In this document: piece after piece, positions 23,621 through 47,966 of the stretch
Position numbering within the stretch: the stretch's first letter is position 1
Layout of the letters: each line of letters opens with the position of its first letter
Source: an uncultured bacterium
Lineage (GTDB): Bacteria; Actinomycetota; Acidimicrobiia; Spongiisociales; ZC4RG35
Length of the DNA stretch: 64,000 nt
Reading direction: 5' to 3'
NCBI GenBank assembly: GCA_963825585.1
Contig: CAWGTX010000001.1
Location: 669,613 to 733,612, forward strand
The notes under the pieces: model-generated
The model's input: the letters and a program-made list of their open reading frames with translations, nothing else
Database searches by the model: none
What the model was told of the DNA's origin: nothing
Program-made: the position numbers and the translations under genes

Positions 23621-23818
23621 CGGTGAGCAGCATAGAGGTAGTGGGTCCTACGGGAAGTGGTTCCTCCGGGAGGAGACTTGGACTGGTCTTGGTGTTCGCT
23701 TCACCTTCCGACCCGCACAATGTTGGCTCCTCGGCCAGGGACGTGGGGGGACCACGATGAAGCCGGCGGGGAAGCCTTGGGTCACCGGGGTTGGGGCGAA
23801 CGCTCGACGGGAGATGCC

Positions 23819-25009
23819 ATGTGGAAGCGGTTTCGACGGTTCGGCGGCGCGGCGGGGATGGTGGGTCTCGCCGCTCTGGTGGTGCTCGGAGTGACGCCGG
23901 TTCCGGCCACGGCCGCACCGGGTGACGTCGGTGTGCTGGGTTGCTCGAACACTGCCATCGCTGCCATCGGGTACAACCAGGTCTCGGATGTCGGTCGGTT
24001 GTGGCCCGCGTCCACCGACGACAACCCCTTTGCCGATTACTGGGGCAACGACATCGTGAAGTGGGCTGACGTGAACGGTCAGGGTCGCAGCGCTTGGGCA
24101 GCGTTCGATGCCGAGCTCGGTGCCAACCCCTCCACAACCGCCGTGTGGTTCCAGGTGTGCGTCCGGGCCGAGACTCCGGGCTCGACCGTCACCGTCGACA
24201 CGATCGTCGCCGAGATCCGGCGACGGCTCCCGCAAGTCACCGTCTACGCCAGTCCTCTCGACGACACTCCCTCGTGCCTGATCGGTGATCCGGACCTTTC
24301 GCTCGAGTACGTGGACCATCTCGTGGACACCGGTCAGGCCTTGCGCGGTCCGACTTTGAGTCCTCTTCCGCCCGACCAGGTGAAGGGTTGCCACGCCTCC
24401 GGCGACGGCATCGACCTGCACGGTGCCGATCTGGCGGCCTTCTTCGACGATGGTGCACTACCCCAGCCCGGCCCTGAACCGAGCGGATTCGTCGACGTCG
24501 GATCGGACCACGTGTTCTCGGCCGATATCGCCTGGCTGGCCGCCCGGGGGATCACCGTTGGATGCAACCCCCCCTCCAACGACCGCTTCTGTCCGGAAGA
24601 ACCGGTGTCACGCGGCCAGATGGCGGCGTTCCTCGCACGTGCGCTCTCGCTGCCCCCATCCGAAGTCGACGCATTCGCAGACGACGCCGGCTCTGTGTTC
24701 GAAGCCGAGATCGACGCCCTCGCCGCAGCCGGCATCACGTCCGGATGCTCGTCGCAGGGCTTCTGTCCCGACGATCCGGTCACGCGGGCGCAGATGGCGA
24801 CGTTCCTCGTCAACGCCTTCGACCTGACCGGGGGCGAGGGGACCGACCTCTTCAGCGACGACAGCGGCGTCCACGAGTTGGACATCGACACGCTCGGAAC
24901 CTCGGGCGTGACCCAGGGCTGCAACCCGCCGCTCAACGATCGCTACTGCCCCGACGATCCCGTCACGAGAGGCCAGATGGCCGCATTCCTGCATCGCGCC
25001 GAGGGGTGA
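23819..25009 (+). CDS. Secreted protein with unknown ~200-aa N-terminal domain and four C-terminal SLH-like repeats
   Basis: Signal peptide MWKRFRRFGGAAGMVGLAALVVLGVTPVPATAAPGD, then four repeats of the type FVDVGSDHVFSADIAWLAARGITVGCNPPSNDRFCPEEPVSRGQMAAFLARAL. Confidence 0.7.
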   Translation: MWKRFRRFGGAAGMVGLAALVVLGVTPVPATAAPGDVGVLGCSNTAIAAIGYNQVSDVGRLWPASTDDNPFADYWGNDIVKWADVNGQGRSAWAAFDAELGANPSTTAVWFQVCVRAETPGSTVTVDTIVAEIRRRLPQVTVYASPLDDTPSCLIGDPDLSLEYVDHLVDTGQALRGPTLSPLPPDQVKGCHASGDGIDLHGADLAAFFDDGALPQPGPEPSGFVDVGSDHVFSADIAWLAARGITVGCNPPSNDRFCPEEPVSRGQMAAFLARALSLPPSEVDAFADDAGSVFEAEIDALAAAGITSGCSSQGFCPDDPVTRAQMATFLVNAFDLTGGEGTDLFSDDSGVHELDIDTLGTSGVTQGCNPPLNDRYCPDDPVTRGQMAAFLHRAEG

Positions 25010-25074
25010 CGCCGAAGGCAGAACGCTGAACGCCCAGAGGAGCGAGGGAGTGGCACGCTGCGAACACCTGCTCG

Positions 25075-25102
25075 CAGCCAGCAGCCAGCAGCCAGCAGCC
25101 AG
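25075..25102. repeat. (CAGCCAG)4 heptamer tandem array, member of dispersed GCTGGCT-repeat family
   Basis: Exact 4x heptamer in the convergent intergenic region. Confidence 0.6.
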
Positions 25103-25116
25103 ATCCTTCCCTGGCG

Positions 25117-25956
25117 CTACTCCGGCGCTATTCCCCGATCGGCCGAGACCGCCAGGATGGCTCCGGCCACTGCGAGAGCGATGAAGGACACGCCTGCCGC
25201 AGCCTGACCGGAGCCGGCTACTGCCACGATCTGGGTGCCGGCGCCCACCACGACCAGTTGGGCGATCAGCCAGGCCCCCATCGGCGCCTTGGAGAAACGG
25301 TCGATCCCGAGGACTGACATGAGCGCCAGTCCCGACCAGGCGCCGAACACCGACACCACTCGGGGGGATCCGCCGTCCAGCGTTGCCCAGGCGGCGAGAC
25401 CGGCGAACGCACCCAGGGCGGGGCCGGTGAAGATCGGCTTTTCGCCGACGACTGCGGCGAGTGACAAGACGAGTGTGGCTCCGAGGAGGGCCCTGGCGAT
25501 CTCGGTGTCGGGAACGCTCGCCCACACGGCGAAGGCGGCGCCGCCGATGACGACACCGACCGTTCTCGGATCGGCTCTCCCGAATCTCCGAGGTCCCCAA
25601 ATCGCGGCGGTGGTGAACAGGGTCGATACGGCCACCGGCCAAACCACGGCGGGCCGCCAGGAGGTGTCGGCGATCACGAACGAGATCGACGCCGTGGACA
25701 CCTCGGACAGGACGGGACGGGCGAGCAGACCCGTGGTCAGGGCGAGGCCGACCGAGGCCAGTACCGGCAACGGATCGAACCTGCCGACGATGAACGTGGA
25801 ACCGCCCACGCCGACCAGCAGCGCGGCAGCACCAGTCCAGCCGATCCTGATCCGCGCCACGAGACCCACCACCAGGCAACCGATCGCCAGACCGAGGCCG
25901 AAGAGGAACCACCTGTCCGACGTGAGCGAAAGGAGGGTTGCGACTTCGTCGCTCAC
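25117..25956 (-). CDS. Hypothetical polytopic membrane protein
   Basis: Only the C-terminal ~280 aa of track ORF 25117..26784 is hydrophobic and protein-like; the remainder is antisense to lpdA. Proposed GTG start at 25956 (VSDEVATLL). Confidence 0.45.
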   Translation of the reverse strand: MSDEVATLLSLTSDRWFLFGLGLAIGCLVVGLVARIRIGWTGAAALLVGVGGSTFIVGRFDPLPVLASVGLALTTGLLARPVLSEVSTASISFVIADTSWRPAVVWPVAVSTLFTTAAIWGPRRFGRADPRTVGVVIGGAAFAVWASVPDTEIARALLGATLVLSLAAVVGEKPIFTGPALGAFAGLAAWATLDGGSPRVVSVFGAWSGLALMSVLGIDRFSKAPMGAWLIAQLVVVGAGTQIVAVAGSGQAAAGVSFIALAVAGAILAVSADRGIAPE

Positions 25957-26196
25957 GAGAACCCGACCAGGAACCAGATGGCTCCGGCGGCGAGGATCAC
26001 CAACGCCACGGCCGCGGCGGCCATCAAAAGGTATCGCGTCTGCACGCCGGGAGGCTACACGTCGTCTGCACAGCAGCCAGGTATCGGCTGCGGAGAGTGG
26101 TCGCTGCATTCGATTGCAGCGTTCGGATGGAAGGGTCACGATCGGCCCGTGACCCACTACCCTCTGGTGGGTAGTTCCCGAAAGGACGGATCGAGG

Positions 26197-27567
26197 GTGT
26201 ACGACATCGTGGTCGTCGGAGGTGGCCCTGGCGGGTACGCCTCGGCGCTGTACGCGCACAATTTCGGCTTGTCGGTCGCCCTCGTCGATGAGGAGCGTCC
26301 CGGTGGCACCTGCCTCATCCGAGGATGTATCCCCGCCAAACAGTGGATTCAGATCGCCGAGGTGTTCGCAACGGTTCGGCATGCCTCCGACTTCGGGGTG
26401 ATCACCTCCGAGCCCCAACTCGACTGGGATGCTGCCATCGCCAGGAAGAACCAGACGGTCGAGGGGCTGCTCAAAGGTCTGTCCGGTCTGCTGAAGCAAC
26501 GCAAGGTGGACGTGATCGACGGGTTCGGTCGCCTCGACGGTCCCGGCAAGGTGGTCGTTTCCGGGGCCGAGGGCGAGCGGACCGTGGCGGGTCGGGCGAT
26601 CATCATGGCCACCGGTTCGCATGCCCGCTCGATCCCGCCATATCCGGTGGACGGCGTTCGGATCGTGACGTCCGATCACGCCCTCGACTGGCCGGCCCGA
26701 CCCGACCGGGTCGCCATCGTCGGCGGCGGTGTGATCGGGTGTGAGTTCGCCAGTCTGCTCACAGACCTCGGCTCCGAGGTCCACGTGTTCGAGGTGATGG
26801 ACCAGATCCTGCCCGGCGGTGACCCCGATGCTGCGAAGCAGCTCGAGCGCCAGCTCTCACGCCGCGGCGTGAAGTTCCACGTCGGGATCGGGGTCGGCGA
26901 ACCGAAGGTCGGCGCCGGAGCTGTGGTGGTGCCGTTCGGCGACTCCTCGGTGGAGGTCGATGTCGTCCTCATGGCGGTCGGGCGTGGCCCCAACACCGCC
27001 AACGTGGGCTTCGATACCACCAAGGCGGTTGTCGACCGTGGCTTCGTCGTCGTCGATCTGGCGACCATGCAGACCGCCGAGCCGGGCGTCTACGCGGTGG
27101 GCGACATCGTGGCCGGCTCGCCCCAGCTCGCCCACGTCGCCTTCGCGGAGGCCATCGCCGCCGTGACCCACATCGCCACCGGGCGGCTGGCGTCGGTCGA
27201 TTACCGGGCGATCCCCCGGGTCACCTACACCCATCCCGAAGTCGCGGAGGTGGGCCTCACCGAGGCGCAGGCGCGCGAGTCGGGTGTCGAGGTGGAGGTC
27301 ACCAAACATGCCTTCAACGGTGTGGGCAGGGCGATCATCATCGGACAGAACCAGGGCTTCGTGAAGGTCATTGCCGAGAAGGATGGACCGATTCTCGGTG
27401 CTGCGGTGGTCGGCCCCCAGGCGGGGGAGATGATCCACGAGCTGATGTACTCGGTCGGGTGGGAGGCCCTCCCCTCCGAGGCCGCGGCATTCATCCACGC
27501 TCATCCCACCCTCTCGGAGGCCGTGGGGGAGACACTCATGGGCGCGGCCGGCAGGGCCCTGCACTGA
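26197..27567 (+). CDS. lpdA: Dihydrolipoyl dehydrogenase (E3)
   Basis: FAD motif DIVVVGGGPGGYASAL, redox disulfide GGTCLIRGCIPAK, C-terminal HAHPTLSEA dimerisation motif. GTG at 26197 preceded by AAAGGACGGA. Confidence 0.85.
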   Translation: MYDIVVVGGGPGGYASALYAHNFGLSVALVDEERPGGTCLIRGCIPAKQWIQIAEVFATVRHASDFGVITSEPQLDWDAAIARKNQTVEGLLKGLSGLLKQRKVDVIDGFGRLDGPGKVVVSGAEGERTVAGRAIIMATGSHARSIPPYPVDGVRIVTSDHALDWPARPDRVAIVGGGVIGCEFASLLTDLGSEVHVFEVMDQILPGGDPDAAKQLERQLSRRGVKFHVGIGVGEPKVGAGAVVVPFGDSSVEVDVVLMAVGRGPNTANVGFDTTKAVVDRGFVVVDLATMQTAEPGVYAVGDIVAGSPQLAHVAFAEAIAAVTHIATGRLASVDYRAIPRVTYTHPEVAEVGLTEAQARESGVEVEVTKHAFNGVGRAIIIGQNQGFVKVIAEKDGPILGAAVVGPQAGEMIHELMYSVGWEALPSEAAAFIHAHPTLSEAVGETLMGAAGRALH

Positions 27568-27586
27568 TTTCCAGGAGAGGTAGGCG

Positions 27587-29502
27587 ATGGCGACAACGGT
27601 GAGCATGCCCCAGTTGGGTGAGACGGTGACCGAAGGGACGATCCTTCGGTGGGCGAAGCAGGTCGGCGACACGATTTCGGCCGACGAGGTGCTGGTGGAG
27701 ATCTCGACCGACAAGGTCGACACCGAGGTGCCTTCGCCGGCGTCCGGTGTGGTGTTGGAGATCCTGGTCGCCGAAGGTGACACGGTGGCTGTGGGCACTG
27801 CCCTCGCCCTGATCGGTGAGGCCTCCGATGCGACCGGTGGCTATCCGAGTCCTGAACCCGAGCCCGCGAAGGCGCCCGCCCCGGCAGAGTCCGCCGCCCA
27901 GCCTGCCCCCGATTCGGCAGCAGCCACCGCTGCCGAGCCGGCGGCGCCGGCCCCCGCCCCGGAACCCCAACCCGCCGCTCAACCGGCCGCCTCAGCCCCC
28001 GCCGCCACCGTGACGATGCCCCAGTTGGGTGAGACGGTGACCGAAGGGACGATCCTTCGGTGGGCGAAGCAGGTCGGCGACACGATTTCGGCCGACGAGG
28101 TGCTGGTGGAGATCTCGACCGACAAGGTCGACACCGAGGTGCCTTCGCCGGCGTCCGGTGTGGTGTTGGAGATCCTGGTCGCCGAAGGTGACACGGTGGC
28201 TGTGGGCACTGCCCTCGCCCTGATCGGAGAGGCCTCGGGCTCGACCGGAGCTGCCCCCCAGCCGGCGCCCCCTGCCCCTGAGACAGCCCCCCAGCCGGCC
28301 TCCGAGCCGGCTCCCCAGGAGGCAGGGCCGACGCCCCCGTTCAGGGGGAGGGCCAGTCGTCGTCCCAGGCGGCGCCGTCAACCGAACCCTCGCCCGCCCC
28401 CGCCGCCGCATCAGGGGAAGGATCCGCTCCTGGGGGCCGTCTGCTGTCGCCGGTTGTCCGCCGACTCGTTCGCGAGAACGGCCTCGACGTCGATCGCATC
28501 CCCGGAACCGGCGAGGGTGGTCGCATCACCCGGAAGGACGTCGAGTCCTTCGTCGCTGCCGCCGCTTCCGCACCGGCGGCCTCGGCACCGGCAACTCAGA
28601 CTCCCGCCGCCGAGACCACCCAGCCTCCACCGGCCGAGGCGCCGGCTGCTGCTCCCGCCGCTCCTGCCGCCGAGTCGACTCCGGCAGCCGCTCCCGTAGC
28701 CTCTGTGTCTGCCCCGGCCTCGGTGCCGGCTCCGACGCCGGCCGCTCGCCCCACCCCGCCCACACCGGTGGCCGCATCGGGTGGCGACGAGACGGTCGAG
28801 TTGGACAGACTCCGGGTGCGTATCGGCGAGAACATGATCCGGGCCAAGCAGACCGCGGCCCACGTGTGGACCTCGGTGGAAGTCGACTACGAGCGGGTCG
28901 AGCGAGTTCGGCAGCGTCACAAGGACGCGTTCAAGGCCGCCGAGGGCTTCTCGCTCACGTACCTCCCGTTCATCGCCCGGGCCACCGTCGACGCCCTTCA
29001 GGAGTTCCCGGTGGTCAACTCGTCGTTCTACCTCGAAGAACGCAAGGCCGTGTTCCACAGGGCCGTGAATCTCGGCATCGCCATCGACCTCAACCAGAAG
29101 GGCCTGGTGGTGGCCTCGGTCAGGTCGTCCGACGGTCTCCGGCTCGTCGGGATCGCCCGCCAGATTCGCGCTCTGGCCGACAAGGCACGGGACGGGAAGC
29201 TCGACCCCGACGATGTGTCCGGCTCCACCTTCACCATCACCAACCCGGGGCCGTTCGGATCGTTCATGTCGGCGCCGATCATCAACGTCCCCAACACCGG
29301 CATTCTGTCGACCGAGACGGTCACCAAGCGACCGGCGGTCGTGACGGGCGCAGACGGTGAGGACGTGATCGCCATCCGTCACATCGGCTACCTGGGCCTC
29401 ACCTGGGATCACCGGGCCTTCGACGGCTCCACCGCCGTCCTGTTCCTACAGCGCATCAAGCAGAACCTGGAGAGTTGGGACTGGGAGCAAGAACTCGCCT
29501 GA
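27587..29502 (+). CDS. 2-oxoacid dehydrogenase E2 acyltransferase (two lipoyl domains, PSBD, catalytic domain), reading frame interrupted near 28330
   Basis: Lipoyl domains ([11 protein letters not shown]) in the 27587 frame. PSBD ([39 protein letters not shown]) and catalytic domain (DHRAFDG) continue in the frame of ORF 28705..29502. The frame change sits at a C5 run (gacgcccccgtt) and is repaired by one extra C. Confidence 0.8.
27605..28227 (+). repeat. Perfect 212-nt tandem duplication (27605-27816 and 28016-28227) encoding identical lipoyl domains
   Basis: 100% nucleotide identity between the two copies, offset 411 nt. The mirrored antisense ORFs 26857..27798 and 27979..28209 share an identical N-terminal peptide. 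Confidence 0.85.
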
Positions 29503-30060
29503 TGGCGAAGAGCTCCTATGTGGCCGAGATCCGATCGTTGGTCGGATCTGGCCCCTCATGCTGTCGTCTGCGGCGGCAGTGGTGCTGGACGAGGCCGGTC
29601 GCATCCTGCTGAGCCGCCATGAGGTCGGTGACCGATGAGTGATCCCGGGCGGCATCATCGATCCCGAGGAGAATCCGGCGCAGGGCCATGGTGCGAGAGG
29701 TGAAGGAGGAGACCGGCCTGGACGTGGTACCAGTCCGGCTGGTGGGTGTGGGGCGGCACACCGGAGCAATGGTCAGCTCGAGGCGATTCCCAAGTCGATG
29801 GCGGTGATCGCAGTCGTACTCGACGGAACCATCATCACCGCCTGTGGATCAACGCCACCTACAACGCCATCTCCGACGCCGATGGCAAGCCGTACCAGGT
29901 CGTCAAGTTCGCCTCGATCGAGTCCGCCAGGGAGGGCGACGCCGGGCGGCCTCGACCGCTGCATCGGCGGTCGACGATTCCTCCCAGGACACGACGGCAG
30001 AGGGCGCCGAGTTGCGGGCGATGGCAGACTGACGCTGTCATCCGGAGCGCCCCCTCCTGC
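29502..30060 (+). pseudogene. NUDIX hydrolase pseudogene (at least 3 frameshifts)
   Basis: Nudix-box pieces spread across three frames: [17 protein letters not shown] / PLMLSSAAAVVLDEAGRILLSRHEVGDR / VIPGGIIDPEENPAQ / MVREVKEETGLDVVPVRLVGVWGG. The ATG overlaps the E2 stop (TGATG). Confidence 0.5.
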
Positions 30061-30194
30061 GACGTAGTACCCGCCCGGGTCCTGATGAGGTGTCGAGTTC
30101 CTGGGCTTCGCGTTCCCTGCTGAGACCGTCTGGGGTCCCGACCGACGATTGCACGCTGCCTTCCCATGTGACCGCAGTCGGGCATAGTGACGGG

Positions 30195-31559
30195 GTGCGC
30201 GTCGTTCTGGCTTCACTCACAGTGCTGTCGCTCATGTCCGTTGCAGGTCAGGCGGCCGCTGACGACTACCCGTCCGGCCGTTTCGATGATGACGACCGCC
30301 ACCCGGCCGAGGTGGCGATGAACGTCCTCGCCGACTGGGGCGTCGTCGACGGGTGCAACCCGCCGGCCAACACCCACTCGTGTCCGGACTCGTCGGTCAC
30401 CAGGGCCGAGGCGGCCAAGATCGTGGTCGAGATCGGTGAGTTCACCGGAGGGCTACTGGAGGGCGGTGGCGGCGAGACTGATCGTTTCGTCGACGACGGA
30501 GAGGCGCTCGGTGGCGGTGCGGAGCGATACTTCGAAACACTGGCCGGCATCGCTGCGCTCCATGGTTGCGATCCGCCCACCAACAGACGCGTCTGCCCCG
30601 ATCGAGGGGTCACACGGGGCCAGATCGCCAAGATTCTCGTCGCCGCCTACGGACTCGAAGCACCCGCCGACCACGACGCTCCCTGGGCCGACATCAACGG
30701 GGAGTTCTACGCCGATGCCGCTCGCATCGCCTCCTACCACGGGATGTGGGACGAGCGTTCCCGCTTCGACGGTCACCAGCGTGCGACCCGCGGCGAGCTG
30801 GCGACGGCAGCGCTCGAGGCCTCCGGGACGACGGTGTGCCGCCCAGACCCGTTCACCCAGGCCCACGTGGCCGAATTGGAGGATCGGTATCCGGGAAAGC
30901 TGATCACCGCCCACGTCTACGACACCAGGACCGGATGCCACTACCGGCTCTCGCACGACAATCGCCAGCGCACGGCATCGGTGTTCAAGGTGATGGTGAT
31001 GGCGGGCACGCTCCTGGAAGCACAGGACGACGGACGTGCCGTGTCCACCTGGGAGCTGAGCCAACTGGATCCCATGATCACCGAATCGGCCAACGGTCCG
31101 GTCCGCTCGCTTTGGTACTCGTTCGGTGCGGCACCCTGGTACCGCAATCAGGGTCGAATCTTCGGACTGGAGGACACCACGGTCCGCGGCGACGACGGCA
31201 GCGCCTGGGGCCTCACCACCACGTCGGCTGCCGATCAGGTCGACCTGATCCGGCAGGTTCTCCTCGGAGACTGGGGTCCTCTTTCCGCCGAGTCGCAGGC
31301 CCTTGCGATCGACCTCATGACCGACGTGGTGCCCAGCCAGACCTGGGGCGTGACCGCCGGAGTCCCAGACGGATGGACCGTCGCCCAGAAGAACGGCTTT
31401 GCGGGCATCACCATCAACTCGGTCGGCTGGGTCGACGAACCGGGGTCCAGCAACGGTTACGTGGTCGCCATCCTGAGCCAGGGATGGCCCGATCACCCCA
31501 GCGGCATCGCGGCTGTGGAGCGAGTCAACCGGTGGGTGGCGGAGGCGATGACGGAGTGA
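30195..31559 (+). CDS. Secreted protein: N-terminal SLH-like repeats fused to class A beta-lactamase-like / serine-hydrolase (PBP-like) domain
   Basis: Signal VRVVLASLTVLSLMSVAGQAAA (GTG 30195, uncertain). SLH-like repeats (GVVDGCNPPANTHSCPDSSVTRAEAAKIVV; ALHGCDPPTNRRVCPDRGVTRGQIAKILV). Serine-hydrolase motifs SVFK (SxxK), SAN (SxN) and KNG (KTG-like). Confidence 0.6.
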   Translation: MRVVLASLTVLSLMSVAGQAAADDYPSGRFDDDDRHPAEVAMNVLADWGVVDGCNPPANTHSCPDSSVTRAEAAKIVVEIGEFTGGLLEGGGGETDRFVDDGEALGGGAERYFETLAGIAALHGCDPPTNRRVCPDRGVTRGQIAKILVAAYGLEAPADHDAPWADINGEFYADAARIASYHGMWDERSRFDGHQRATRGELATAALEASGTTVCRPDPFTQAHVAELEDRYPGKLITAHVYDTRTGCHYRLSHDNRQRTASVFKVMVMAGTLLEAQDDGRAVSTWELSQLDPMITESANGPVRSLWYSFGAAPWYRNQGRIFGLEDTTVRGDDGSAWGLTTTSAADQVDLIRQVLLGDWGPLSAESQALAIDLMTDVVPSQTWGVTAGVPDGWTVAQKNGFAGITINSVGWVDEPGSSNGYVVAILSQGWPDHPSGIAAVERVNRWVAEAMTE

Positions 31560-31560
31560 A

Positions 31561-31679
31561 GCTGCTGGCTACTGGCTTCTAGCTGCTGGCCCGGACTCAC
31601 AACGAGAGAAGGTGCTCTAGCGGCCAGCTCGTCGCTCGTCGTGCAAAACCCAGGAGCCAGCAGCCAGCAGCCAGTAGCC
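31561..31679. repeat. Intergenic repeat element with inverted (GCTGGCT)n-type arms (GCTGCTGGCTACTGGCTTCTAGCTGCTGGC ... CCAGGAGCCAGCAGCCAGCAGCCAGTAGCC)
   Basis: The two arms are near reverse complements of each other, placed between the beta-lactamase-like gene and lipB. Confidence 0.5.
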
Positions 31680-31719
31680 GATTCGCCGCTATCTCTCGCA
31701 TCGTGGTACCAATCGGGCT

Positions 31720-33396
31720 GTGAGTACCACTCTGAGGGTTCGTTGGCTGGGTCGGCTTCCGTACAAGGAGGCGTGGGATCTCCAACGCGCCATTCACGAA
31801 GGGCGGGTAGGCGGCCGGACCGCTGACGACTACCTGCTACTGCTCGAACATCCGCATGTCTACACCATCGGGCGCAACGGCAACGGGTCGAACCTCCTGA
31901 TCGACGAGGCGGACCTTGGTGACATCGGCGCCGAGATCCACCGGGTGGATCGTGGGGGTGACATCACCTATCACGGTCCCGGTCAGCTGGTCGGATACCC
32001 GATCATCCAACTCGACAATCCGATGCAGGTGGTGCCGCACGTCCGGCGGCTGGAAGAGGTGCTGATCGCCACCCTGGCCGAGTGGGGGATAGCGGGCTGG
32101 CGGGAAGAGGGACTGACCGGAGTGTGGACCGAGCGTGGAAAGGTCGCCGCCATCGGCGTGCGCGTGGCCCGCCAGGTCACGATGCACGGGTTCGCGCTCA
32201 ACCTCGATCCCGACATGGCGTACTTCCAGCGGATGAACCCATGCGGGATCGCAGATCGACCCGTGACCTCCGTCGCGGAGCTGCTGGGGAGCCGGATCTC
32301 ACTCGAGGAGGCCACCGAGACGCTCATCCCGCAGTTCGCCCGGGTCTTCGGTGCCGGACAGCCCGAGGTCCAGAAGGCCGCGTTCGTACGCGGCCAGGGC
32401 CGCCAGCGTGAGTTCGAGGTCGACCGCCTCCTGGCCGACGGGACGTTCTCGCTCGAGAAGCGAACGGCCGAACCGGTGCTCATCAGCGGTCGGCTCCCGG
32501 GAGAGCCGGCGAGGCCGGATTGGATGAAGGTGACCGCCCGGATGGACGGCGACTATCTCGAGCTCAAGAAGATGATGCGGGGCATGGAGCTGCACACCGT
32601 CTGCGAGGAGGCGGGTTGTCCGAACATCTTCGAGTGCTGGGGGATGGGCACCGCCACGCTCATGATCCTCGGGGACAAGTGCACCCGGGCCTGTTCGTTC
32701 TGCAATGTCACCACGGGGCGGCCCACCGAACTCGACGTGATGGAGCCGTTCCGGGCCGCCGGTGCCGTCGCCTCGATGAACCTCAAACATGCCGTCATCA
32801 CCTCGGTCAACCGTGACGACCTCGACGACGGCGGTTCAGGCATCTTCGCCCAGACCATCGCAGAGAGTCGTCGGCGTTCTCCGGGAACCGACATCGAGGT
32901 CCTCATCCCCGACTTCAAGGGGGAAGTCGAGCCGCTCGAGACGTTGATGGCGGCCCGACCGGACGTCCTCAACCACAACACCGAGACGGTGTTGCGACTC
33001 CAGCGCGACATCCGGACGTCGGCCAACTATGGGCGATCGTTGGCGCTGCTGGCGAGGGCGCGCTGGCTCAATCCCGACGGCCTGACCAAGTCGGGGCTGA
33101 TCGTCGGGATGGGTGAAAGCGACGAGGAGGTCCTGGGGACTCTGGCCGATCTGAGGGCGGTGGGGGTCGACATCATCACCATCGGGCAGTACCTGCGGCC
33201 GACAGCACGTCACCGTCCCATCCACCGGTACGTCCACCCGGATCAGTTCGCCCGGTTCAAGGAGTACGGCGAGGCGATCGGTATTCCCCACGTCGAGTCG
33301 GGCCCATTGGTCCGGTCCAGTTATCACGCCAAGGACTCGGTCGAGCGGCTGACACCCGACCGACAATTCACACCAGTGACCATCGGAAGGCGCTGA
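31720..33396 (+). CDS. lipB-lipA: Octanoyltransferase LipB fused in-frame to lipoyl synthase LipA (single 558-aa ORF)
   Basis: The N-terminal ~220 aa is LipB (RVDRGGDITYHGPGQLVGYPI). The C-terminal ~320 aa is LipA (CEEAGCPNIFEC and radical-SAM CTRACSFC). About 50 aa of linker joins them, with no in-frame stop between. Confidence 0.75.
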   Translation: MSTTLRVRWLGRLPYKEAWDLQRAIHEGRVGGRTADDYLLLLEHPHVYTIGRNGNGSNLLIDEADLGDIGAEIHRVDRGGDITYHGPGQLVGYPIIQLDNPMQVVPHVRRLEEVLIATLAEWGIAGWREEGLTGVWTERGKVAAIGVRVARQVTMHGFALNLDPDMAYFQRMNPCGIADRPVTSVAELLGSRISLEEATETLIPQFARVFGAGQPEVQKAAFVRGQGRQREFEVDRLLADGTFSLEKRTAEPVLISGRLPGEPARPDWMKVTARMDGDYLELKKMMRGMELHTVCEEAGCPNIFECWGMGTATLMILGDKCTRACSFCNVTTGRPTELDVMEPFRAAGAVASMNLKHAVITSVNRDDLDDGGSGIFAQTIAESRRRSPGTDIEVLIPDFKGEVEPLETLMAARPDVLNHNTETVLRLQRDIRTSANYGRSLALLARARWLNPDGLTKSGLIVGMGESDEEVLGTLADLRAVGVDIITIGQYLRPTARHRPIHRYVHPDQFARFKEYGEAIGIPHVESGPLVRSSYHAKDSVERLTPDRQFTPVTIGRR

Positions 33397-33450
33397 TGGT
33401 TGACGATCCGGGCACACGATGAGGTGGCGAACAGTGGAAGGAGCGACAGA

Positions 33451-33480
33451 GGTCCTGTCGTCGGAGCGGTCGACAGGACC
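33451..33480 (+). terminator. Candidate stem-loop terminator downstream of lipB-lipA (10-bp perfect stem GGTCCTGTCG/CGACAGGACC)
   Basis: Perfect inverted repeat with a 10-nt loop, 55 nt after the lipA stop; no U-tract. Confidence 0.35.
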
Positions 33481-33716
33481 AGCAGGGGCAGGTCCGACAT
33501 CCCTGTCCGCTGAACCTCGATGAACAGGCGGTGACAGAGCGCACGGAATGATTCTCGGCGGACCGAAGGGCGTGGAACATCCGCCCATCGTGGATGTGTC
33601 GTATACGACGTATCGACCTATTGTCGAGCCGTCGCGGCGTCGCCTGGGTGGAGGGTTGGCACCAGGTTCTACCAGCGGTTTGAGGTCATTTGAGAAGGGG
33701 GAGAGGGGCTCATCGG

Positions 33717-34880
33717 ATGAGGGTGCTACACGTTGTGGACAGCCTGGCGGGGTCGGGGGGCGCAGAGCATGGGCTCGTGCGTGAGATCACCCGCTTCTCA
33801 CCGCATGTAGAGCAGCGTGTGGTCCGTCTGTACGAACGGGCCGAGCTGGAGCCACTCCTCACCGATGCCGGGATCGAGGTGACGGCGCTGGGGTTCGCCG
33901 CGACCTCCGGCTCGCGTACCTTTCCGCAGGCCGCACTGAAACTCCGGCCGATCGTGAAGGCGTACCGTCCGGAGGTCATCCACACCAGTCTGTTTCTCGG
34001 CAATCTGGTCGGCCAGATGGCGGCGAGGTCGACGGGAATTCCAGTGCTTTCGACGTTCGTGCTGTCGGGAGACCTGGCGTTGCTCAAGGCAACCCAGCCG
34101 GGAGCGGCGTCCCTGAAAGCAGCGGGTATCCGGCGGATCGCCGCACTGTCGGCCCGCCTCAGTGGCGCCAGTTTCCGCGCTCTGTCCAACGATGCCCGCA
34201 TCACCAACTGCCGGCTTCTCGGCGTGCCCTTCGACCGGGTCGAAGTGATTCCGCGGGGTGTCCCGGAACCGGTGGGCCAGCTCATGACGCGTGCCGATCT
34301 GGGCCTGCCCGACGATGTTCCACTCATCGTCAACGTGGCCCGCGTTGCCGCCCAGAAGGGGCAGGTCCATCTGCTCAGGAGCTTCGCTTCCCTGCGCCTG
34401 CAGCGGCCCGATGCCCATCTCGTCATCGTGGGCAGGGCGGGTGACGCCGAACGGAGCGTCGACGGCGAGATCGCCCGGCTCGGTCTGACGGGTCATGTGA
34501 CGATGCTCGGGTACACGCCGTACGCCCGTCACGTGGTCTCGCACGCCTCGGTGTTCGCCTTCAGTTCGCTGATGGAAGGTCTGGGCACCGCGGTGATCGA
34601 GGCACTGGTGGCGAAAGTGCCGGTGGTGGCGTTCGACATCCCCCCGGTTCGAGACGCGACCGACAACGGACGTGGGGCGAGGCTGGTGCCTCTGGGCGAT
34701 GAAGCGGGATTCACCGCCGGGCTCCTCGCCGGTCTTCAAGGTGAACTCGCCACGGTCGCCGATCACGGTGCGACCTTTGCGGCCGAGCACGGCAACCTCG
34801 ACGACATCTCTGCCCGGCTCGAGCGACTGCTGACATCGGTCGCCGCGCGCAAACCGGTGGGTGCGTCTCTGGACCACTGA
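33717..34880 (+). CDS. Glycosyltransferase family 4
   Basis: MRVLHVVDSLAGSGGAEHG N-terminus and EGLGTAVIEALVAKVPVVAFD E-x7-E region. ATG preceded by GAAGGGGGAGAGGGG. Confidence 0.8.
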   Translation: MRVLHVVDSLAGSGGAEHGLVREITRFSPHVEQRVVRLYERAELEPLLTDAGIEVTALGFAATSGSRTFPQAALKLRPIVKAYRPEVIHTSLFLGNLVGQMAARSTGIPVLSTFVLSGDLALLKATQPGAASLKAAGIRRIAALSARLSGASFRALSNDARITNCRLLGVPFDRVEVIPRGVPEPVGQLMTRADLGLPDDVPLIVNVARVAAQKGQVHLLRSFASLRLQRPDAHLVIVGRAGDAERSVDGEIARLGLTGHVTMLGYTPYARHVVSHASVFAFSSLMEGLGTAVIEALVAKVPVVAFDIPPVRDATDNGRGARLVPLGDEAGFTAGLLAGLQGELATVADHGATFAAEHGNLDDISARLERLLTSVAARKPVGASLDH

Positions 34881-35829
34881 CCTTCCGTTTGGGCGGTCTC
34901 CGGCTACATTCTTCGCCGTGGTGGGTAGCGGAAACGCCGGCAGTCCGGTTCGGGGTCCCCGAACAGAGGCCCTCTTCGATCGCGCCCTCGGTCTCGGAAT
35001 GGTGGGCCGGCTGGCTCGAATCACCGTCAACGCCCCGCTGCGGGTACTGGCCTATCACGACATCAAGGACGCGGATGGGTTCGCAGCGCAGATGGAACAC
35101 ATCGCAGAGCGATACCGACCCGTCTCGGTAGCCGATGTCGTCGAGTGGCTGGACGGTGGCACGTTGCCCCCGGCGGCGGTGTGGGTGACCTTCGATGACG
35201 CAGACCCCACCGTCGTGGAAGATGGATTGCCCGTGCTCGAGCACTACGACGTGCCCGCCACCATGTTCATCTGTCCGGGCGTGATCGACACCGACCGGCC
35301 GTACTGGTGGCAGATCGTGGAGCGGACTGCGCCCACCGAGGTGGGGGGATTGAAACTGGCGGAGGATGGCCGACGCCTGGAACGGGTGGCCGAACTCTCC
35401 GATACCTACGTCGAGCGCCATGGCGCCCGTCCCACCCACGAACAGCTGACTCGTATCCAGCTGGAACGCTGGCTCGAGTCGGGGAGAGACATCGGCAACC
35501 ACACGTGGGACCACCCGCTCCTCGACCGCTGTGACGACGCAGAGCAGGAGCGCCAGATCGTGATGGCGCACGACTGGATCCTCGATCGTTTCGCCCCCGA
35601 ACATCTGGTGTTCGCCTACCCCAACGGGAATCGGTCACCCCACGCAGAGGTGGTGCTGAACCGGCTCGGCTACCGGGTGAGCGTTCTGTTCGACCATCGT
35701 CTGACCTCGTTGGCCGCGAGCGGGAGGTTGTCCCGGCTCCGGACGAACGCCGACGGGGACCTTGCCCGCTTCCGCTCGATCGTGTCGGGTGTGCATCCCA
35801 CCATCCACCGCCTACGCGGCGGGCGATGA
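34861..35829 (+). CDS. Polysaccharide deacetylase (NodB homology)
   Basis: VTFDDADP and HTWDHP NodB motifs. GTG at 34861 overlaps the GT4 stop by 20 nt; alternative ATG at 34999. Confidence 0.75.
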   Translation: MRLWTTDLPFGRSPATFFAVVGSGNAGSPVRGPRTEALFDRALGLGMVGRLARITVNAPLRVLAYHDIKDADGFAAQMEHIAERYRPVSVADVVEWLDGGTLPPAAVWVTFDDADPTVVEDGLPVLEHYDVPATMFICPGVIDTDRPYWWQIVERTAPTEVGGLKLAEDGRRLERVAELSDTYVERHGARPTHEQLTRIQLERWLESGRDIGNHTWDHPLLDRCDDAEQERQIVMAHDWILDRFAPEHLVFAYPNGNRSPHAEVVLNRLGYRVSVLFDHRLTSLAASGRLSRLRTNADGDLARFRSIVSGVHPTIHRLRGGR

Positions 35830-35906
35830 TCGCGGTCGGGAGCCTGGTCGGCAGCCCCACAGATTCCCAGACGAGTCATCGTGCTCGGTCCACCTAGGAT
35901 CGAGGA

Positions 35907-36995
35907 ATGTTCGACTACCACCAGCGGATCCGGCGGGCCCGTGGAGTCATGGATCGACTGGGCATCGACTGCCTGCTCGTTTCCGTCGGGCCCGACCTCC
36001 CGTACCTGACCGGGTACGAGGCCATGGCTTCCGAACGCCTCACGATGCTCGTCGTGGGACGGGAGGACGAAGCGACCCTGGTGATACCCGAGCTCGAGGC
36101 TCCCCGGGTTGCACCAGGACCGTTCCGGATCAGGGCGTGGTCGGAGACCGACGACCCAACAGGCATCGTTGCGTCGCTCGCCGGCAGACCCGCGGTCGCC
36201 GCCGTGGGTGACCACATGAGGGCGGTGTTCCTGCTCGGTCTCCTGCCGCTGCTGCCGGCCACCACCTTCGTCCCGGCTTCGGTGCTCACCCGGGTGCTGA
36301 GGGAGGTGAAGGAGCCCGCCGAAGTCGAGGCTCTTCGGGCGGCGGCGCAGGCGGTCGACCGGATCGCCGGAAGCATCCCCAGCGAGGTGCGGTTCGGGGG
36401 ACGGAGCGAGCAGGCGGTGGCGCGTGACATCGTCGAGATGACGCTGGGCGAAGGCCACGAAACCGCTTCGTTCTGGATCGTGGCGACAGGACCCAACTCC
36501 GCTTCGCCGCACCACGAACCGGGAGACCGGGTCATCGCCCGGGGCGATTCGGTGGTGGTGGACTTCGGGGGGCGGATGAGCGGCTACTGCTCGGACATCA
36601 CCCGCACGTTCGTGGTGGGGGAGCCGTCGGCGGAGCTGTCCGAGGTGCATTCCGTGGTCGCGGCCGCCCAGGCGGCGGCCCGATCGCATGCTCGGACAGG
36701 TGTGACGGCTGCTTCGGTGGACGCCGCCGCGCGTGAGGTGATCACCGATGCCGGCTACGGCGCGTACTTCGTCCACCGACTGGGGCACGGTATCGGGTTG
36801 GAAGGGCACGAACATCCCTATCTGGTGGCGGGCAACCAGCAGATCCTCCAACCCGGCAATGCGTTCTCGATCGAACCGGGCATCTACCTACCGGATCGGT
36901 TCGGCGTGAGGATCGAGGACATCGCCGTGATCGCCTCGGACGGCAGTCTCGACGTCCTCAACCGGTCGGATCGGTCGCTGCGTACGGTGGATTGA
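35907..36995 (+). CDS. M24 family Xaa-Pro aminopeptidase / creatinase-fold metallopeptidase
   Basis: Metal-ligand pattern DFGGRMSGYCSDITRT ... HRLGHGIGLEGHE ... SIEPGIY ... RIEDIAV. Confidence 0.8.
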   Translation: MFDYHQRIRRARGVMDRLGIDCLLVSVGPDLPYLTGYEAMASERLTMLVVGREDEATLVIPELEAPRVAPGPFRIRAWSETDDPTGIVASLAGRPAVAAVGDHMRAVFLLGLLPLLPATTFVPASVLTRVLREVKEPAEVEALRAAAQAVDRIAGSIPSEVRFGGRSEQAVARDIVEMTLGEGHETASFWIVATGPNSASPHHEPGDRVIARGDSVVVDFGGRMSGYCSDITRTFVVGEPSAELSEVHSVVAAAQAAARSHARTGVTAASVDAAAREVITDAGYGAYFVHRLGHGIGLEGHEHPYLVAGNQQILQPGNAFSIEPGIYLPDRFGVRIEDIAVIASDGSLDVLNRSDRSLRTVD

Positions 36996-37007: not shown

Positions 37008-38000
37008 TCAGCTGATCGTGACCACGATGCGGGTTCGGCGAATCAGCACATCCTGGTGGTACCAGCGGCCCTCGATCGAGAAGCTACCCGACGCCGGCGT
37101 GACGACCGTGTGGTTCCAGTTTCTCGTCACAACGGCTCCTGTCGACGTCTCGACCGGGGCCGGTCTCGGCCGTTGGGTGCCGTCGATGAGCAGATCGAAA
37201 CGGGTCGTCGAGGATCGGAAAGCCCCTTCCTCGCCTCCGACGAACGGAAGGACGTGGTCCCATCCCTCCGCCACCGAGATGCGCCGGTTTGGTCCACTGG
37301 TGGCGCTCCCGGAGCATGCGGTGCCGTCTTTCGAGCAGAACCAGCCTCGCGCCAGGTCGACCAACGGGGGCCGTTGGGGAAGCGCCAGCGCGCGTGCGAG
37401 AAACGATGCCATCTGTTCCCGTGTGACCGAGTTGGATGGGCAGTAGCGATCGTTGTCTGGTGGATTGCAGCCGACCGTGATCCCCGCCGTGGCGAGTCGT
37501 TCGATGTCGGCCTCGAACACCGAGCCGTTGTCGTCGACGAAGTCCACGTCGCCGCGGTCGGTGAGATCGAGAGCCCGCACCAGAAACGACGCCATCTGGC
37601 CTCTCGTGACCGGGGCATTCGGGCAGAACAGGGTGTTGCCGGGCGGGTTGCATCCCCGCGAGATGCCGGTGGCTGCGAGCCACTCGATGTCCCCCTCGAA
37701 CACGGTCCCCGTCGCGTCCGAGAACGAGGCGTCAGGCCCGATTGCGACACTGCCCTCGAATCCGCGTCGGAGGAAGGCTGCCATCTGTCCCCTCGTGACC
37801 GTCGCCTGCGGACAGAACCTGTCGGAGGTGGGTGGATTGCAGCCGACCGTGACACCGGCCGCGGCGATCGCCTCGATTGCCGACTCGTGCACCGAGGTGT
37901 CGTCGTCGGTGAAGCGTCCGGACAGGCGAGCGGCGCCGGCCGGTGCCACCGACCAGAGGAGTGCACTCACGACCACCAACGCGAGAGTCCGGGACTTCAC
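37008..38000 (-). CDS. Secreted protein with three SLH-like repeats and ~110-aa C-terminal domain of unknown function
   Basis: GTG at 38000 (VKSRTLALVVVSALLWSVAPAGAA signal), in a GTGA overlap with the upstream gene. Repeats as in 6733..7389. The N-terminal 237 aa of track ORF 37008..38711 is Arg-rich artefact. Confidence 0.65.
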   Translation of the reverse strand: MKSRTLALVVVSALLWSVAPAGAARLSGRFTDDDTSVHESAIEAIAAAGVTVGCNPPTSDRFCPQATVTRGQMAAFLRRGFEGSVAIGPDASFSDATGTVFEGDIEWLAATGISRGCNPPGNTLFCPNAPVTRGQMASFLVRALDLTDRGDVDFVDDNGSVFEADIERLATAGITVGCNPPDNDRYCPSNSVTREQMASFLARALALPQRPPLVDLARGWFCSKDGTACSGSATSGPNRRISVAEGWDHVLPFVGGEEGAFRSSTTRFDLLIDGTQRPRPAPVETSTGAVVTRNWNHTVVTPASGSFSIEGRWYHQDVLIRRTRIVVTIS

Positions 38001-38452
38001 GGAGCGATCTCCAGTCCCGCCAGCACAGTGTTGATCTGGCCGATCACGTCGGCGCGGTCGACATGCGACCCGACCACGATGTAGAGGCAGAAGGCACGCC
38101 CGGCATGAGTGAAGAACCGTTGCACGCCCGACATACCGGTAACGCGTGTGTGGAGGACGTCGCGGTCGAAGTCGTCGGTCGACACGAACCGGGGAGCCCC
38201 CTCGGTTGCGAACAGGGCCGTGCCCACGCTCTCGGGCCCGTACTCGTAGAGCACGACGAGCGCGTCGCCGGGTTCCATCACCATGATGGCACCACCACCG
38301 AAATCGCCCCGCCCGGGGGGTAGCGGGAAGTTGGCCAGATGGGCCACCGTCGGTCTGACCGCACCGTCCTCGAGCAGGTTGAGGCCCTCGTCGAGCTGGC
38401 CCTCCCAGCCGGCAGGGAGGTCGGCGCCGATGCCGCGTCCGTTGAGTCTCAT
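37997..38452 (-). CDS. Hypothetical protein (152 aa)
   Basis: ATG MRLNGRG confirmed at 38452. 4-nt overlaps with both neighbours, so it is embedded in the operon. Confidence 0.4.
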   Translation of the reverse strand: MRLNGRGIGADLPAGWEGQLDEGLNLLEDGAVRPTVAHLANFPLPPGRGDFGGGAIMVMEPGDALVVLYEYGPESVGTALFATEGAPRFVSTDDFDRDVLHTRVTGMSGVQRFFTHAGRAFCLYIVVGSHVDRADVIGQINTVLAGLEIAP

Positions 38453-39021
38453 GATCCGACCAGCCCGATGACTGACCCGCCGGCGAGCAACGCAACCGCT
38501 GCCGTGAGTCGGGCGGGCGTGGTGAGACGGGCCATGGTCTCGTGGAATCGACCGAGGCGTGACGGTCGGTCGATCCAGCCGGCGGCGAGCAGTGGGATCG
38601 CCCGTCCTCCACCGAACAGCATCCCTGCGATCGCACCGACGATCGGGTCGCCCATGAGGGCAAGGGCAACCACGAGAGCCGGCACCGCCCACGTGACGAC
38701 ATAGGTCGCAAATCCGATCCCCAGTTGAGCGCCGAAGGAGATCCCGTACACCCAACCTCGGAAGGTGCCGATCCACCGCTCGTTGACCTGGCGATGGAGC
38801 CACGGAACGGGTACAGCGGCGAGGTCGGCGACCCCGGCGGCCACGACCACCGCGGCCACCCATACCGGTGACGGTCGTGTGGCCAGCACGGAACCTACGA
38901 GCGCGGAGGTGGTGCCAAGGACGGCACCGGAGGTCATCGAGCCGACCGTGAACGCCGTCACGGTGACCCACCATCGGTTGGAGCGTGCCCGCTCACCGAG
39001 CGGGTGGATGCTGGACAGCAT
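38449..39021 (-). CDS. Hypothetical integral membrane protein (operon member)
   Basis: 190-aa ORF with 4-5 TM helices and no CxxC. Confidence 0.45.
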   Translation of the reverse strand: MLSSIHPLGERARSNRWWVTVTAFTVGSMTSGAVLGTTSALVGSVLATRPSPVWVAAVVVAAGVADLAAVPVPWLHRQVNERWIGTFRGWVYGISFGAQLGIGFATYVVTWAVPALVVALALMGDPIVGAIAGMLFGGGRAIPLLAAGWIDRPSRLGRFHETMARLTTPARLTAAVALLAGGSVIGLVGS

Positions 39022-42739: not shown

Positions 42740-42888
42740 TTGACCCAGGGGGGACGACCCCCCTGACCCCCCGCCGGTTGTGGTGGTGCGGCACTCGCGT
42801 GGTGGGCCGGGGTGTTCAACAGGCCGCGCATACGTTTGCCACGTGGAGCGACGAGCTGCGAGCTGCGAGCGAAACCTTGGCTGCTGGC

Positions 42889-43077
42889 TGCTGGCTGCTG
42901 GCTGCTGGCTGCTGGCTGCTGGCGAAGAGTCGTCCGAAGCAGCGCGAAAGGGGCTGGGTCGACCGCTCCGGCGTGAGGACCGCTGCCGCTCTGCCCCATC
43001 TGTCGCGGCTTCGCTGCGCTTCCGGGCGTTCTGCGTTCTGCGTCTGGCTGGCAGCTGGTAGCTGGTAGCTACCAGCT
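42889..43077. repeat. Intergenic repeat element: (CTGGCTG)4-5 array at 42889-42916 and 11-bp-stem palindrome AGCTGGTAGCT-GGT-AGCTACCAGCT at 43053-43077
   Basis: Exact heptamer array. Perfect hairpin overlapping the stop of the convergent CysQ gene. Confidence 0.6.
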
Positions 43078-43849
43078 ACTTCGTGATCTCCTGAACCGCT
43101 TCCATCAGCGCTCCATTCGTTGCGAGGAAGCCTGTCAGGAGTGGGTCGGGGCGGTTGAAGCGGGGTTGTGTTCCGTCGAGGAATCGCACCTGGCCGCCAC
43201 CGGCCACCACCAGGGCGGCACCGCCGACCACGTCCCACTCGTTCTTGGGGACCAGGGTCCAGGTGGCGTCGGCCAGGCCTGCAGCCACCAGGCCGAGTTT
43301 GTAGGCGACCGAGCCCATGTTGCGGACTGAGACCGGGGTACGGAAGAAGCGGTCCCACTCACCCCGCTTGACTTCGCTGCGGCTGGCGAGCACGAGTGCG
43401 CCGTCGATCGACCGGGTGGATGTGACGCCGGCCGGCTGACCGTTCAGCGTGACCCCGTGGCCAACCGCACCGAGGATGAGGTGGTTGGGCCCGGGCGCCA
43501 GGATGCCCCCGGCGACCGGGAGACCGTCCTCGACCAGCCCGATGGAGACGCACCACTCCGGGATGCCGTCGACGAACTCGCGGGTGCCGTCGAGCGGATC
43601 TACCACCCACACCCGGGAACACTCGAGGCGGCCCACGTCGTCGGCGGTCTCCTCGGAGAGCCATCCTTCTCCCGCCTCGAGCAGGGACTCCTTCATGATG
43701 GCGTCGATGAGGATGTCGGCCTCGGTCACCGGATCGCCCCCGGCCTTTGCGGAGGCGGCCACCGAACCCGCCGTGAACGACTGGAGGGCGGATCCGGCGC
43801 GCGTGAGCGCCGCCTCGATGCGGTCCAGATCCTTGGTGTACTTGCTCAT
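43076..43849 (-). CDS. cysQ: Inositol-monophosphatase family protein, probable 3'(2'),5'-bisphosphate nucleotidase (CysQ-like PAP phosphatase)
   Basis: WVVDPLDGT and WDVVGG motifs. Lies next to the cysDN-cysC genes and a sulfate-type transporter. Confidence 0.65.
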   Translation of the reverse strand: MSKYTKDLDRIEAALTRAGSALQSFTAGSVAASAKAGGDPVTEADILIDAIMKESLLEAGEGWLSEETADDVGRLECSRVWVVDPLDGTREFVDGIPEWCVSIGLVEDGLPVAGGILAPGPNHLILGAVGHGVTLNGQPAGVTSTRSIDGALVLASRSEVKRGEWDRFFRTPVSVRNMGSVAYKLGLVAAGLADATWTLVPKNEWDVVGGAALVVAGGGQVRFLDGTQPRFNRPDPLLTGFLATNGALMEAVQEITK

Positions 43850-47870: not shown

Positions 47871-47878
47871 GAATGCAG

Positions 47879-47966
47879 GCTGCTAGCTGCTGGCTTCTGG
47901 CTGCTGGCTGGAAGCCAGGGGCGGCGAGCAGGAGCGTCTCTGGCTGGTAGCTGGTAGCCAGTAGCT
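47879..47966. repeat. Intergenic repeat element of the GCTGGCT family (arms GCTGCTAGCTGCTGGCTTCTGGCTGCTGGCTGG ... CTGGCTGGTAGCTGGTAGCCAGTAGC) between cysN and cysC
   Basis: Same motifs as the elements at 25075, 31561 and 42889. Confidence 0.5.

Follow-up and report, generated by a model that had tools for sequence, protein, structure and literature searches.

Whether two consecutive steps of protein lipoylation are carried out by a single protein is the question raised by the stretch of DNA analysed here, which comprises 64,000 nucleotides (nt) from an uncultured bacterium of the class Acidimicrobiia (positions 669,613 to 733,612 of contig CAWGTX010000001.1; hereafter referred to as the window). 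A preliminary description of the window had claimed that the octanoyltransferase LipB and the lipoyl synthase LipA are encoded here by one gene, lipB::lipA, as an in-frame fusion of 558 amino acids (aa). The analyses reported here bear out this claim, as the gene consists of one stop-free frame, both halves score above the cut-offs of their families, and all close relatives examined share the fusion. The LipB-LipA fusion is real, conserved, typical of Acidimicrobiia and recurrent elsewhere, and is best regarded as a variant within a known pathway, not as a system of a new kind. Judged from its sequence, the open reading frame (ORF) very probably encodes one bifunctional polypeptide for both steps of de novo protein lipoylation.

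According to the ORF list and its translation, lipB::lipA occupies positions 31720..33396 of the plus strand, uses a GTG start, and comprises 558 codons and a stop codon with no stop in between; a 558-aa protein with 100% identity to the window fusion, originating from a 1.06-Mb contig, is already present in NCBI/ENA. Among NCBIfam models, the LipB equivalog NF010925 matches residues 3-210 with 217.6 bits (cut-off 155) and the lipoyl synthase model NF004019 matches residues 265-544 with 398.8 bits (cut-off 203), while TIGR00214 (LipB) and TIGR00510 (LipA) score 156.2 bits (cut-off 83.55) and 342.9 bits (cut-off 310.25), respectively. Pfam identifies three domains, i.e., LplA-B_cat (PF21948) at residues 15-206 (E 1e-48; 166 bits, cut-off 27), the end of LIAS_N (PF16881) at residues 266-300, and Radical_SAM (PF04055) at residues 315-477. 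Alignment to solved structures places the LipB core at residues ~4-213 (Thermus thermophilus LipB, 2qhs, and M. tuberculosis LipB, 1w66) and the LipA core at residues 264-543 (M. tuberculosis LipA, 5exi); about 50 residues therefore separate the two cores, and the linker of approximately 50 aa that had been proposed corresponds to residues 214-263. The sequence motifs quoted in the preliminary description are likewise all present (Table 1).

The residues on which catalysis would depend are intact in both halves. K141 and C175 align with the Lys/Cys dyad of M. tuberculosis LipB in 1w66, for which the catalytic residues are given as C176/K142 (Ma et al. 2006, as cited in PMC12246082), and the auxiliary-cluster motif CX4CX5C, the radical S-adenosylmethionine (SAM) motif CX3CX2C and the C-terminal RSSY motif are all matched in the alignment to 5exi. 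Across 116 aligned fusion proteins that represent two phyla, K141, C175 and H156 are invariant, as are all six of these cysteines of the LipA half together with R532, S533 and S534, while Y535 is nearly invariant. AlphaFold2, when run with the 116-sequence alignment, yielded a mean predicted local distance difference test score (pLDDT) of 89.4 and a predicted template modelling (TM) score of 0.90 for the whole two-domain chain. In Foldseek comparisons of this model with the PDB, the LipB half matched 2qhs and 1w66 with TM scores of 0.94 and 0.88, respectively, and the LipA half matched M. tuberculosis LipA (5exk) with a TM score of 0.92 and human LIAS chains with TM scores of 0.90-0.94; no solved chain covering both halves was found in this search.

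As fused domains sometimes decay, we considered that one half might be a degenerate, non-catalytic scaffold, e.g., a dead LipB that docks the lipoyl domain for LipA. Nothing specific was found to favor such a scenario, and it appears highly improbable given that both halves exceed equivalog or subfamily cut-offs, that the 116 fusions show little or no variation in the Cys/Lys dyad, the two cluster motifs and RSSY, and that the median ratio of nonsynonymous to synonymous substitution rates (dN/dS) is 0.138 for the LipB half and 0.107 for the LipA half in a codon alignment of the window and 18 loci. In addition, no second lipA or lipB was found in the 64-kb window. By these measures, both halves are ordinary, complete members of the LipB and LipA families with intact catalytic motifs.

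An open frame in a single contig could also result from an assembly or sequencing artefact, i.e., lipB and lipA could be separate genes between which a stop codon was missed or an indel introduced, and the window itself contains a nearby irregularity of this type. The E2 acyltransferase gene upstream of the fusion is split over two frames: frame 27587..28699 encodes two lipoyl domains with identical amino-acid sequences followed by Arg/Pro-rich nonsense, and frame 28282..29502 encodes the peripheral-subunit-binding and catalytic domains. Comparison with the E2 of relatives, which is intact in one frame, places the frame switch between 28234 and 28339, where C runs are frequent and the encoded sequence is rich in Pro and Ala. 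The break is due to an indel introduced in assembly or to a genuine frameshift, and the contig is thus not free of such errors or frameshifts. The lipB-lipA junction, however, is open in all of the best 120 homologues retrieved from a collection of 5.8 billion proteins; these come from independent projects (NCBI, ENA, JGI and Logan assemblies), show 74-100% identity, range from 541 to 593 aa and carry the same three Pfam domains. A genome scan with one genome per species identified 22 best loci with 71-92% identity, of which 21 were labelled Acidimicrobiia, Acidimicrobiaceae or Actinomycetota and one (L015) Boseongicola; in all 22, one frame without stops spans the matched region, including the junction wherever the contig extends that far. 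The junction is also read through in a more distant Acidimicrobiia locus (L025; 54% identity), where the sole frame break falls inside the LipA half. This break, in a metagenome-assembled genome (MAG), lies at 7187-7191 (query residue ~405). L025 has a broken E3 gene as well, pointing to indel errors in this assembly.

The stretch between the two cores provides a further argument against an artefact, because it evolves as coding sequence. Among 106 members of the clade, 15 positions within residues 214-263 are invariant and 13 are nearly invariant, and conserved motifs include E-x-Q-x2-AF-x-RGQG, FEVDRLLxxGTFS (32413-32451) and GRLPGEPxRP, the last of which runs into the LipA N-terminus. In the codon alignment of the window and 18 loci, the connector showed a mean proportion of nonsynonymous differences (pN) of 0.24, a mean proportion of synonymous differences (pS) of ~0.66 and a median dN/dS of 0.195, with synonymous sites near saturation, and length differences among aligned loci consisted of whole codons only. 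Because dN/dS is about 0.2, length changes are whole-codon and residues are invariant, the connector appears to be translated in the frame of the fusion and selected as protein; by these criteria it is a conserved module under purifying selection and not a variable spacer. Taken with the junctions of the close relatives, these data refute the artefact for practical purposes, and we consider its residual probability negligible. The comparison of the linker with relatives that had been proposed thus supports a lineage-wide fusion. A stop codon at the equivalent position, which the preliminary description had named as an observation that would speak against the fusion, was seen only in a distant Bacteroidota locus (L023; see below) and not in the lineage of the window.

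To define how widely the fusion occurs, 1.84 billion cluster representatives (50% identity) were searched exhaustively with HMMER, and the best 150 representatives were classified by use of the two halves of the query. LipB followed by LipA in one chain was found in 72 of the 150, with about 50 of these covering both halves nearly fully; the gap between the LipB and LipA cores among the 72 ranged from 6 to ~140 residues. The remaining representatives consisted of LipA alone (67), LipB alone (4) and fusions in reverse order (7). The reverse-order fusions, with LipA preceding LipB (P0156, P0166, P0167, P0168, P0181, P0208 and P0210), are 469-542 aa long and have connectors of 1-25 residues. A profile built from more distant GC-rich and GC-poor fusions retrieved fusions of 530-622 aa as all of its 120 top matches, and almost all of those with a named source were from Acidimicrobiales or Acidimicrobiaceae; the fusion is therefore class-wide in Acidimicrobiia, with connectors that differ between orders. 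L024, a 536-aa fusion with 41% identity to the window protein from an unclassified low-GC genome, revealed a second large clade of fusions when used as query; this clade is found in Thermodesulfobacteriota, including Desulfarculaceae, Desulfobacteraceae, Desulfocapsaceae and the cultured Desulfonema limicola. Of the proposal that the architecture is unusual, the natural fusion therefore stands, but its rarity does not, as the fusion is class-wide in Acidimicrobiia and common in Thermodesulfobacteriota.

Several observations bear on how this distribution may have arisen. Unfused LipAs resemble the LipA half of the window protein more closely (61% identity for P0187 and 52-56% for others) than do the fused LipAs of Desulfobacterota (only 46-50%); furthermore, the connectors of the Acidimicrobiia and Thermodesulfobacteriota fusions do not align. 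The closer similarity to unfused LipAs, together with connectors that cannot be aligned, suggests independent fusion events, such that the Acidimicrobiia and Thermodesulfobacteriota fusions would have arisen separately and fusion is likely to have occurred more than once in bacteria. Adjacent lipB and lipA genes in the same frame were probably fused when the stop codon separating them was lost. Locus L023 (5488-7173), from a Bacteroidota MAG, provides a plausible precursor state that would be one mutation short of fusion: a 252-aa lipB is followed by one stop, 9 nt and a 305-aa lipA that begins with ATG in the same frame. Other candidates were rejected as fusions. Many Bacteroidota loci that match the whole query contain adjacent lipA-then-lipB genes in separate frames, and in L076 (Thermaceae) and L074 (Desulfobacterales), lipB and lipA are separate and occupy different frames.

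Even if the ORF is genuine, it could yield two proteins, with an internal start at Met269 or cleavage at residues 223-229 releasing free LipA (and LipB), so that the fusion would serve as a device for co-expression. Some of our data speak for this or against a single bifunctional chain. Met269, an in-frame ATG, is invariant in the clade, and the unfused LipAs compared (M. tuberculosis, human and Thermosynechococcus elongatus) have Ile or Leu at this position; a LipA starting at Met269 would be approximately as long as the T. elongatus enzyme. Based on this invariance and length, initiation at Met269 independent of a Shine-Dalgarno (SD) sequence is conceivable on sequence grounds. In the window, GAGG is found 9 nt upstream of this ATG, and residues 223-229 are predicted to be disordered (pLDDT <50 in the AlphaFold2 model). 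A separate point against a single chain is that two short representatives are found near the lineage of the window, i.e., P0202, a LipB-only protein of 243 aa, and P0187, a LipA-only protein of 296 aa, which are 69% and 61% identical, respectively, to the corresponding halves of the window protein; these may represent true fissions that took place in the fused lineage or close to it, or else genes whose calls were disrupted by frameshifts.

Other evidence argues against a second product. The GAGG occurs only in the window, owing to an AGG codon for Arg; all 18 relatives use CGN at that Arg, and 17 of the 18 lack an SD-like motif within 20 nt, the exception being L012 (GGAG). Diversity at four-fold degenerate sites over codons 241-270 is 1.44-1.52 bits, with no dip below the gene mean of 1.40. 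With neither a conserved SD motif nor reduced four-fold diversity, internal initiation is unsupported, and the internal ribosome binding site and start for free LipA that had been suggested in the preliminary description found no backing, given that the window GAGG is not conserved in the 18 relatives and that no synonymous constraint is apparent. Moreover, the connector preceding Met269 is strongly conserved as protein, which would be unexpected if it were discarded, and Leu occupies the position of Met269 in other fusion lineages (L024). We thus consider the production of two proteins from this ORF improbable and retain a single bifunctional polypeptide, which would have a mass of about 61 kDa, as the preferred interpretation.

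With regard to mechanism, LipB enzymes use a Cys/Lys dyad and form an acyl-thioester intermediate on the active-site Cys, and LipA enzymes use two SAM molecules and two [4Fe-4S] clusters, with the sulfur donated by the auxiliary cluster. From these established family mechanisms, it can be proposed that the LipB domain of the fusion would take octanoate from octanoyl-acyl carrier protein (ACP) onto Cys175 as a thioester, with assistance by Lys141, and would then transfer the octanoyl group to the lipoyl-lysine of E2 lipoyl domains (and of GcvH). In the LipA domain, hydrogen abstraction at C6 and C8 would depend on two SAM and the radical-SAM [4Fe-4S] cluster (C321/C325/C328), and the two sulfurs inserted would come from the auxiliary cluster (C295/C300/C306 plus Ser533 of RSSY). 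Fusion would be expected to set a 1:1 ratio of the two activities and to hold LipA beside the site where its protein-bound substrate is made, and a direct hand-off of the octanoylated lipoyl domain from LipB to LipA (i.e., channeling) is plausible.

Given how strongly it is conserved, the connector may be more than a passive tether. In the AlphaFold2 model described above, it includes a short strand at residues 216-219 and two helices of moderate confidence at residues 233-239 and 245-249 (pLDDT 64-81); a rerun with sequences of the window clade only, and hence a shallower alignment, was poorer (pLDDT 75.5, with <50 at residues 223-243) and left the connector without a defined structure. A possible, although on balance unlikely, extension of the bifunctional interpretation is that the connector (FEVDRLLxxGTFS, GRLPGEP) represents a functional element that docks the lipoyl domain of E2 or GcvH, or ACP, or that gates the hand-off, such that LipB would pass the octanoylated lipoyl domain on to LipA with no release in between. 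The repeated independent fusions (in Acidimicrobiia, Thermodesulfobacteriota and the reverse-order lineages) would then reveal a physical LipB-LipA partnership that is non-covalent where the genes are separate.

Comparison with known systems indicates where the fusion is conventional and where it differs. The separate LipB (Rv2217) and LipA (Rv2218) of M. tuberculosis and the LipB and LipA of E. coli belong to the same families and share catalytic residues and folds with the window fusion, and the M. tuberculosis enzymes align with it at residues 264-543 (LipA half, 5exi) and 4-203 (LipB half, 1w66), with TM scores of 0.92 (5exk) and 0.88 (1w66). Unlike these pairs, the window protein is one polypeptide, with a 50-residue connector that has no counterpart in solved structures. 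The Thermodesulfobacteriota fusions, e.g., P0294 from Desulfonema limicola (519 aa), show the same domain order, the same three Pfam domains and the same catalytic residues, but are only 37-45% identical overall to the window protein and have a shorter connector that cannot be aligned. The NCBIfam family NF053790 (LplA_LipA_fuse, bifunctional lipoate-protein ligase/lipoyl synthase) likewise places a lipoyl-attachment enzyme N-terminal to LipA; its N-terminal partner is the ATP-dependent ligase LplA, whereas that of the window protein is the octanoyltransferase LipB. The window protein is not a member of this family, as it scores 360.2 bits (cut-off 800) and matches through its LipA half only (model positions 324-605). 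Fusion, fission and domain reordering recur in lipoate-assembly enzymes, as exemplified by the lipoate ligases, which are either fused, as Lpl(AB) and Lpl(BA), or split, as LplA+LplB (PMC10332631); Lpl(AB) and Lpl(BA) join a catalytic and an accessory domain of one reaction, whereas the LipB-LipA fusion joins two consecutive reactions. Searches of open-access full texts yielded no description of a natural LipB-LipA fusion, nor is one mentioned in a 2023 phylogenomic survey of lipoate assembly that discusses other fusions (PMC10332631), and NCBIfam holds no model for it. Public databases nevertheless already hold hundreds of these proteins, which NCBI and JGI name only 'lipoyl synthase' or 'lipoic acid synthetase'; UniRef names the Desulfonema limicola fusion 'Multifunctional fusion protein'.

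Table 1. Features of the fused gene and of its surroundings in the window.
Feature	Position	Strand	Basis
Fused lipB::lipA coding sequence	31720..33396	+	ORF list and translation
LipB octanoyl-[ACP]:protein N-octanoyltransferase domain, residues 3-213	31726..32358	+	NCBIfam, structure alignment, Foldseek
RVDRGGDITYHGPGQ motif of LipB half, residues 75-89	31942-31986	+	Sequence
Predicted catalytic Lys141 of LipB half (GKVAAIG)	32140-32142	+	Alignment to 1w66
Predicted catalytic Cys175 of LipB half, in NPCGI	32242-32244	+	Alignment to 1w66
Inter-domain connector, residues 214-263	32359..32508	+	Between aligned LipB and LipA cores
LipA lipoyl synthase domain, residues 264-545	32509..33354	+	NCBIfam, alignment to 5exi, Foldseek
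In-frame ATG (Met269), candidate internal start for free LipA	32524..32526	+	Sequence
Auxiliary-cluster motif CX4CX5C (C295, C300, C306), within CEEAGCPNIFEC at residues 295-306	32602-32637	+	
Radical-SAM motif CX3CX2C (C321, C325, C328), CTRACSFC at residues 321-328	32680-32703	+	
C-terminal RSSY motif, residues 532-535	33313-33324	+	
lpdA (E3, dihydrolipoamide dehydrogenase), first gene of lpdA-E2-lipBA cluster	25978..27567	+	Pfam Pyr_redox_2, Pyr_redox_dim
E2 acyltransferase (lipoylation substrate), split over two frames	27587..29502	+	Pfam Biotin_lipoyl x2 in 27587..28699; 2-oxoacid_dh in 28705..29502
489-aa ORF, C-terminal beta-lactamase-family domain	30090..31559		Pfam
Long hairpin in 160-nt leader of the fusion	31567..31679	+	Two 24-nt arms of GCCAGCA heptamer repeats, 65-nt spacer

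The genomic context links the fusion to its probable protein substrate. The gene order lpdA (E3), E2, lipB::lipA is conserved and is found in the relatives L002, L004-L008, L010-L012, L016, L021 and L022, and E2 is composed of two lipoyl domains, a peripheral-subunit-binding domain and a catalytic domain. In L002, L006, L012 and L021, the stop codon of E2 and the start codon of the fusion overlap (GTGA or ATGA, around position 5998-6001), implying translational coupling, by which the modifying enzyme would be made together with its protein substrate. In mycobacteria, lipB and then lipA are also located downstream of the E2 gene, as in the fusion clade. The order E2-lipB-lipA given in the preliminary description thus holds for the clade but not strictly for the window, where a 489-aa ORF is inserted and E2 is not directly upstream. 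This ORF, which contains repeated N-terminal segments (e.g., VTRAEAAKIVV and VTRGQIAKILV), separates E2 from the fusion in the window and in L001, the closest relative of the window, but not in the other relatives, where the fusion directly follows E2.

In the window, a long hairpin lies within the leader of the fusion; its arms are 92% complementary, and the predicted RNA fold of 31555-31725 has a free energy of -77.7 kcal/mol (z = -3.6). The hairpin is formed by two opposed arrays (31561-31590 and 31649-31679) of a 7-nt unit, GCCAGCA (TGCTGGC on the other strand), which is also found in intergenic tandem arrays at 25070-25100, 42879-42923 and 47878-47908; the arrays contain 2 to 6.5 copies each, and none would be expected by chance. 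A related unit, GGTAGCT, is found at 43045-43080 and 47943-47965. No Rfam family was found for the hairpin or the arrays, with a scan of 25000-36000 returning only sub-threshold chance matches, and scans of 31400-33800 identified no promoters or terminators. Two large ORFs that encode S-layer homology (SLH) domains lie on either side of the lipoylation cluster, at 23657-25009 (plus strand) and 37008-38711 (minus strand), and genes for a GT4 glycosyltransferase (33690-34880) and a polysaccharide deacetylase (34861-35829) are located immediately downstream of the fusion.

Because LipB-LipA fusions are named as lipoyl synthase only and no NCBIfam model represents them, metabolic reconstructions of Acidimicrobiia and of many Desulfobacterota would score lipB as missing, which may wrongly suggest lipoate auxotrophy or a lifestyle that depends on salvage only. 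The fusion, which may also serve as a simple shared character of the class Acidimicrobiia, provides an example of the recurrent fusion of consecutive pathway steps. As a natural covalent pair, LipB and LipA offer a convenient system in which to follow the passage of the octanoylated lipoyl domain from a transferase to a radical-SAM sulfur-insertion enzyme, and could show whether LipA, a sacrificial enzyme, gains from being held where its substrate is produced. The known chemistry of lipoylation is unchanged by the fusion, and its practical value lies in the correction of annotation and in a natural system for the study of hand-off between the two enzymes.

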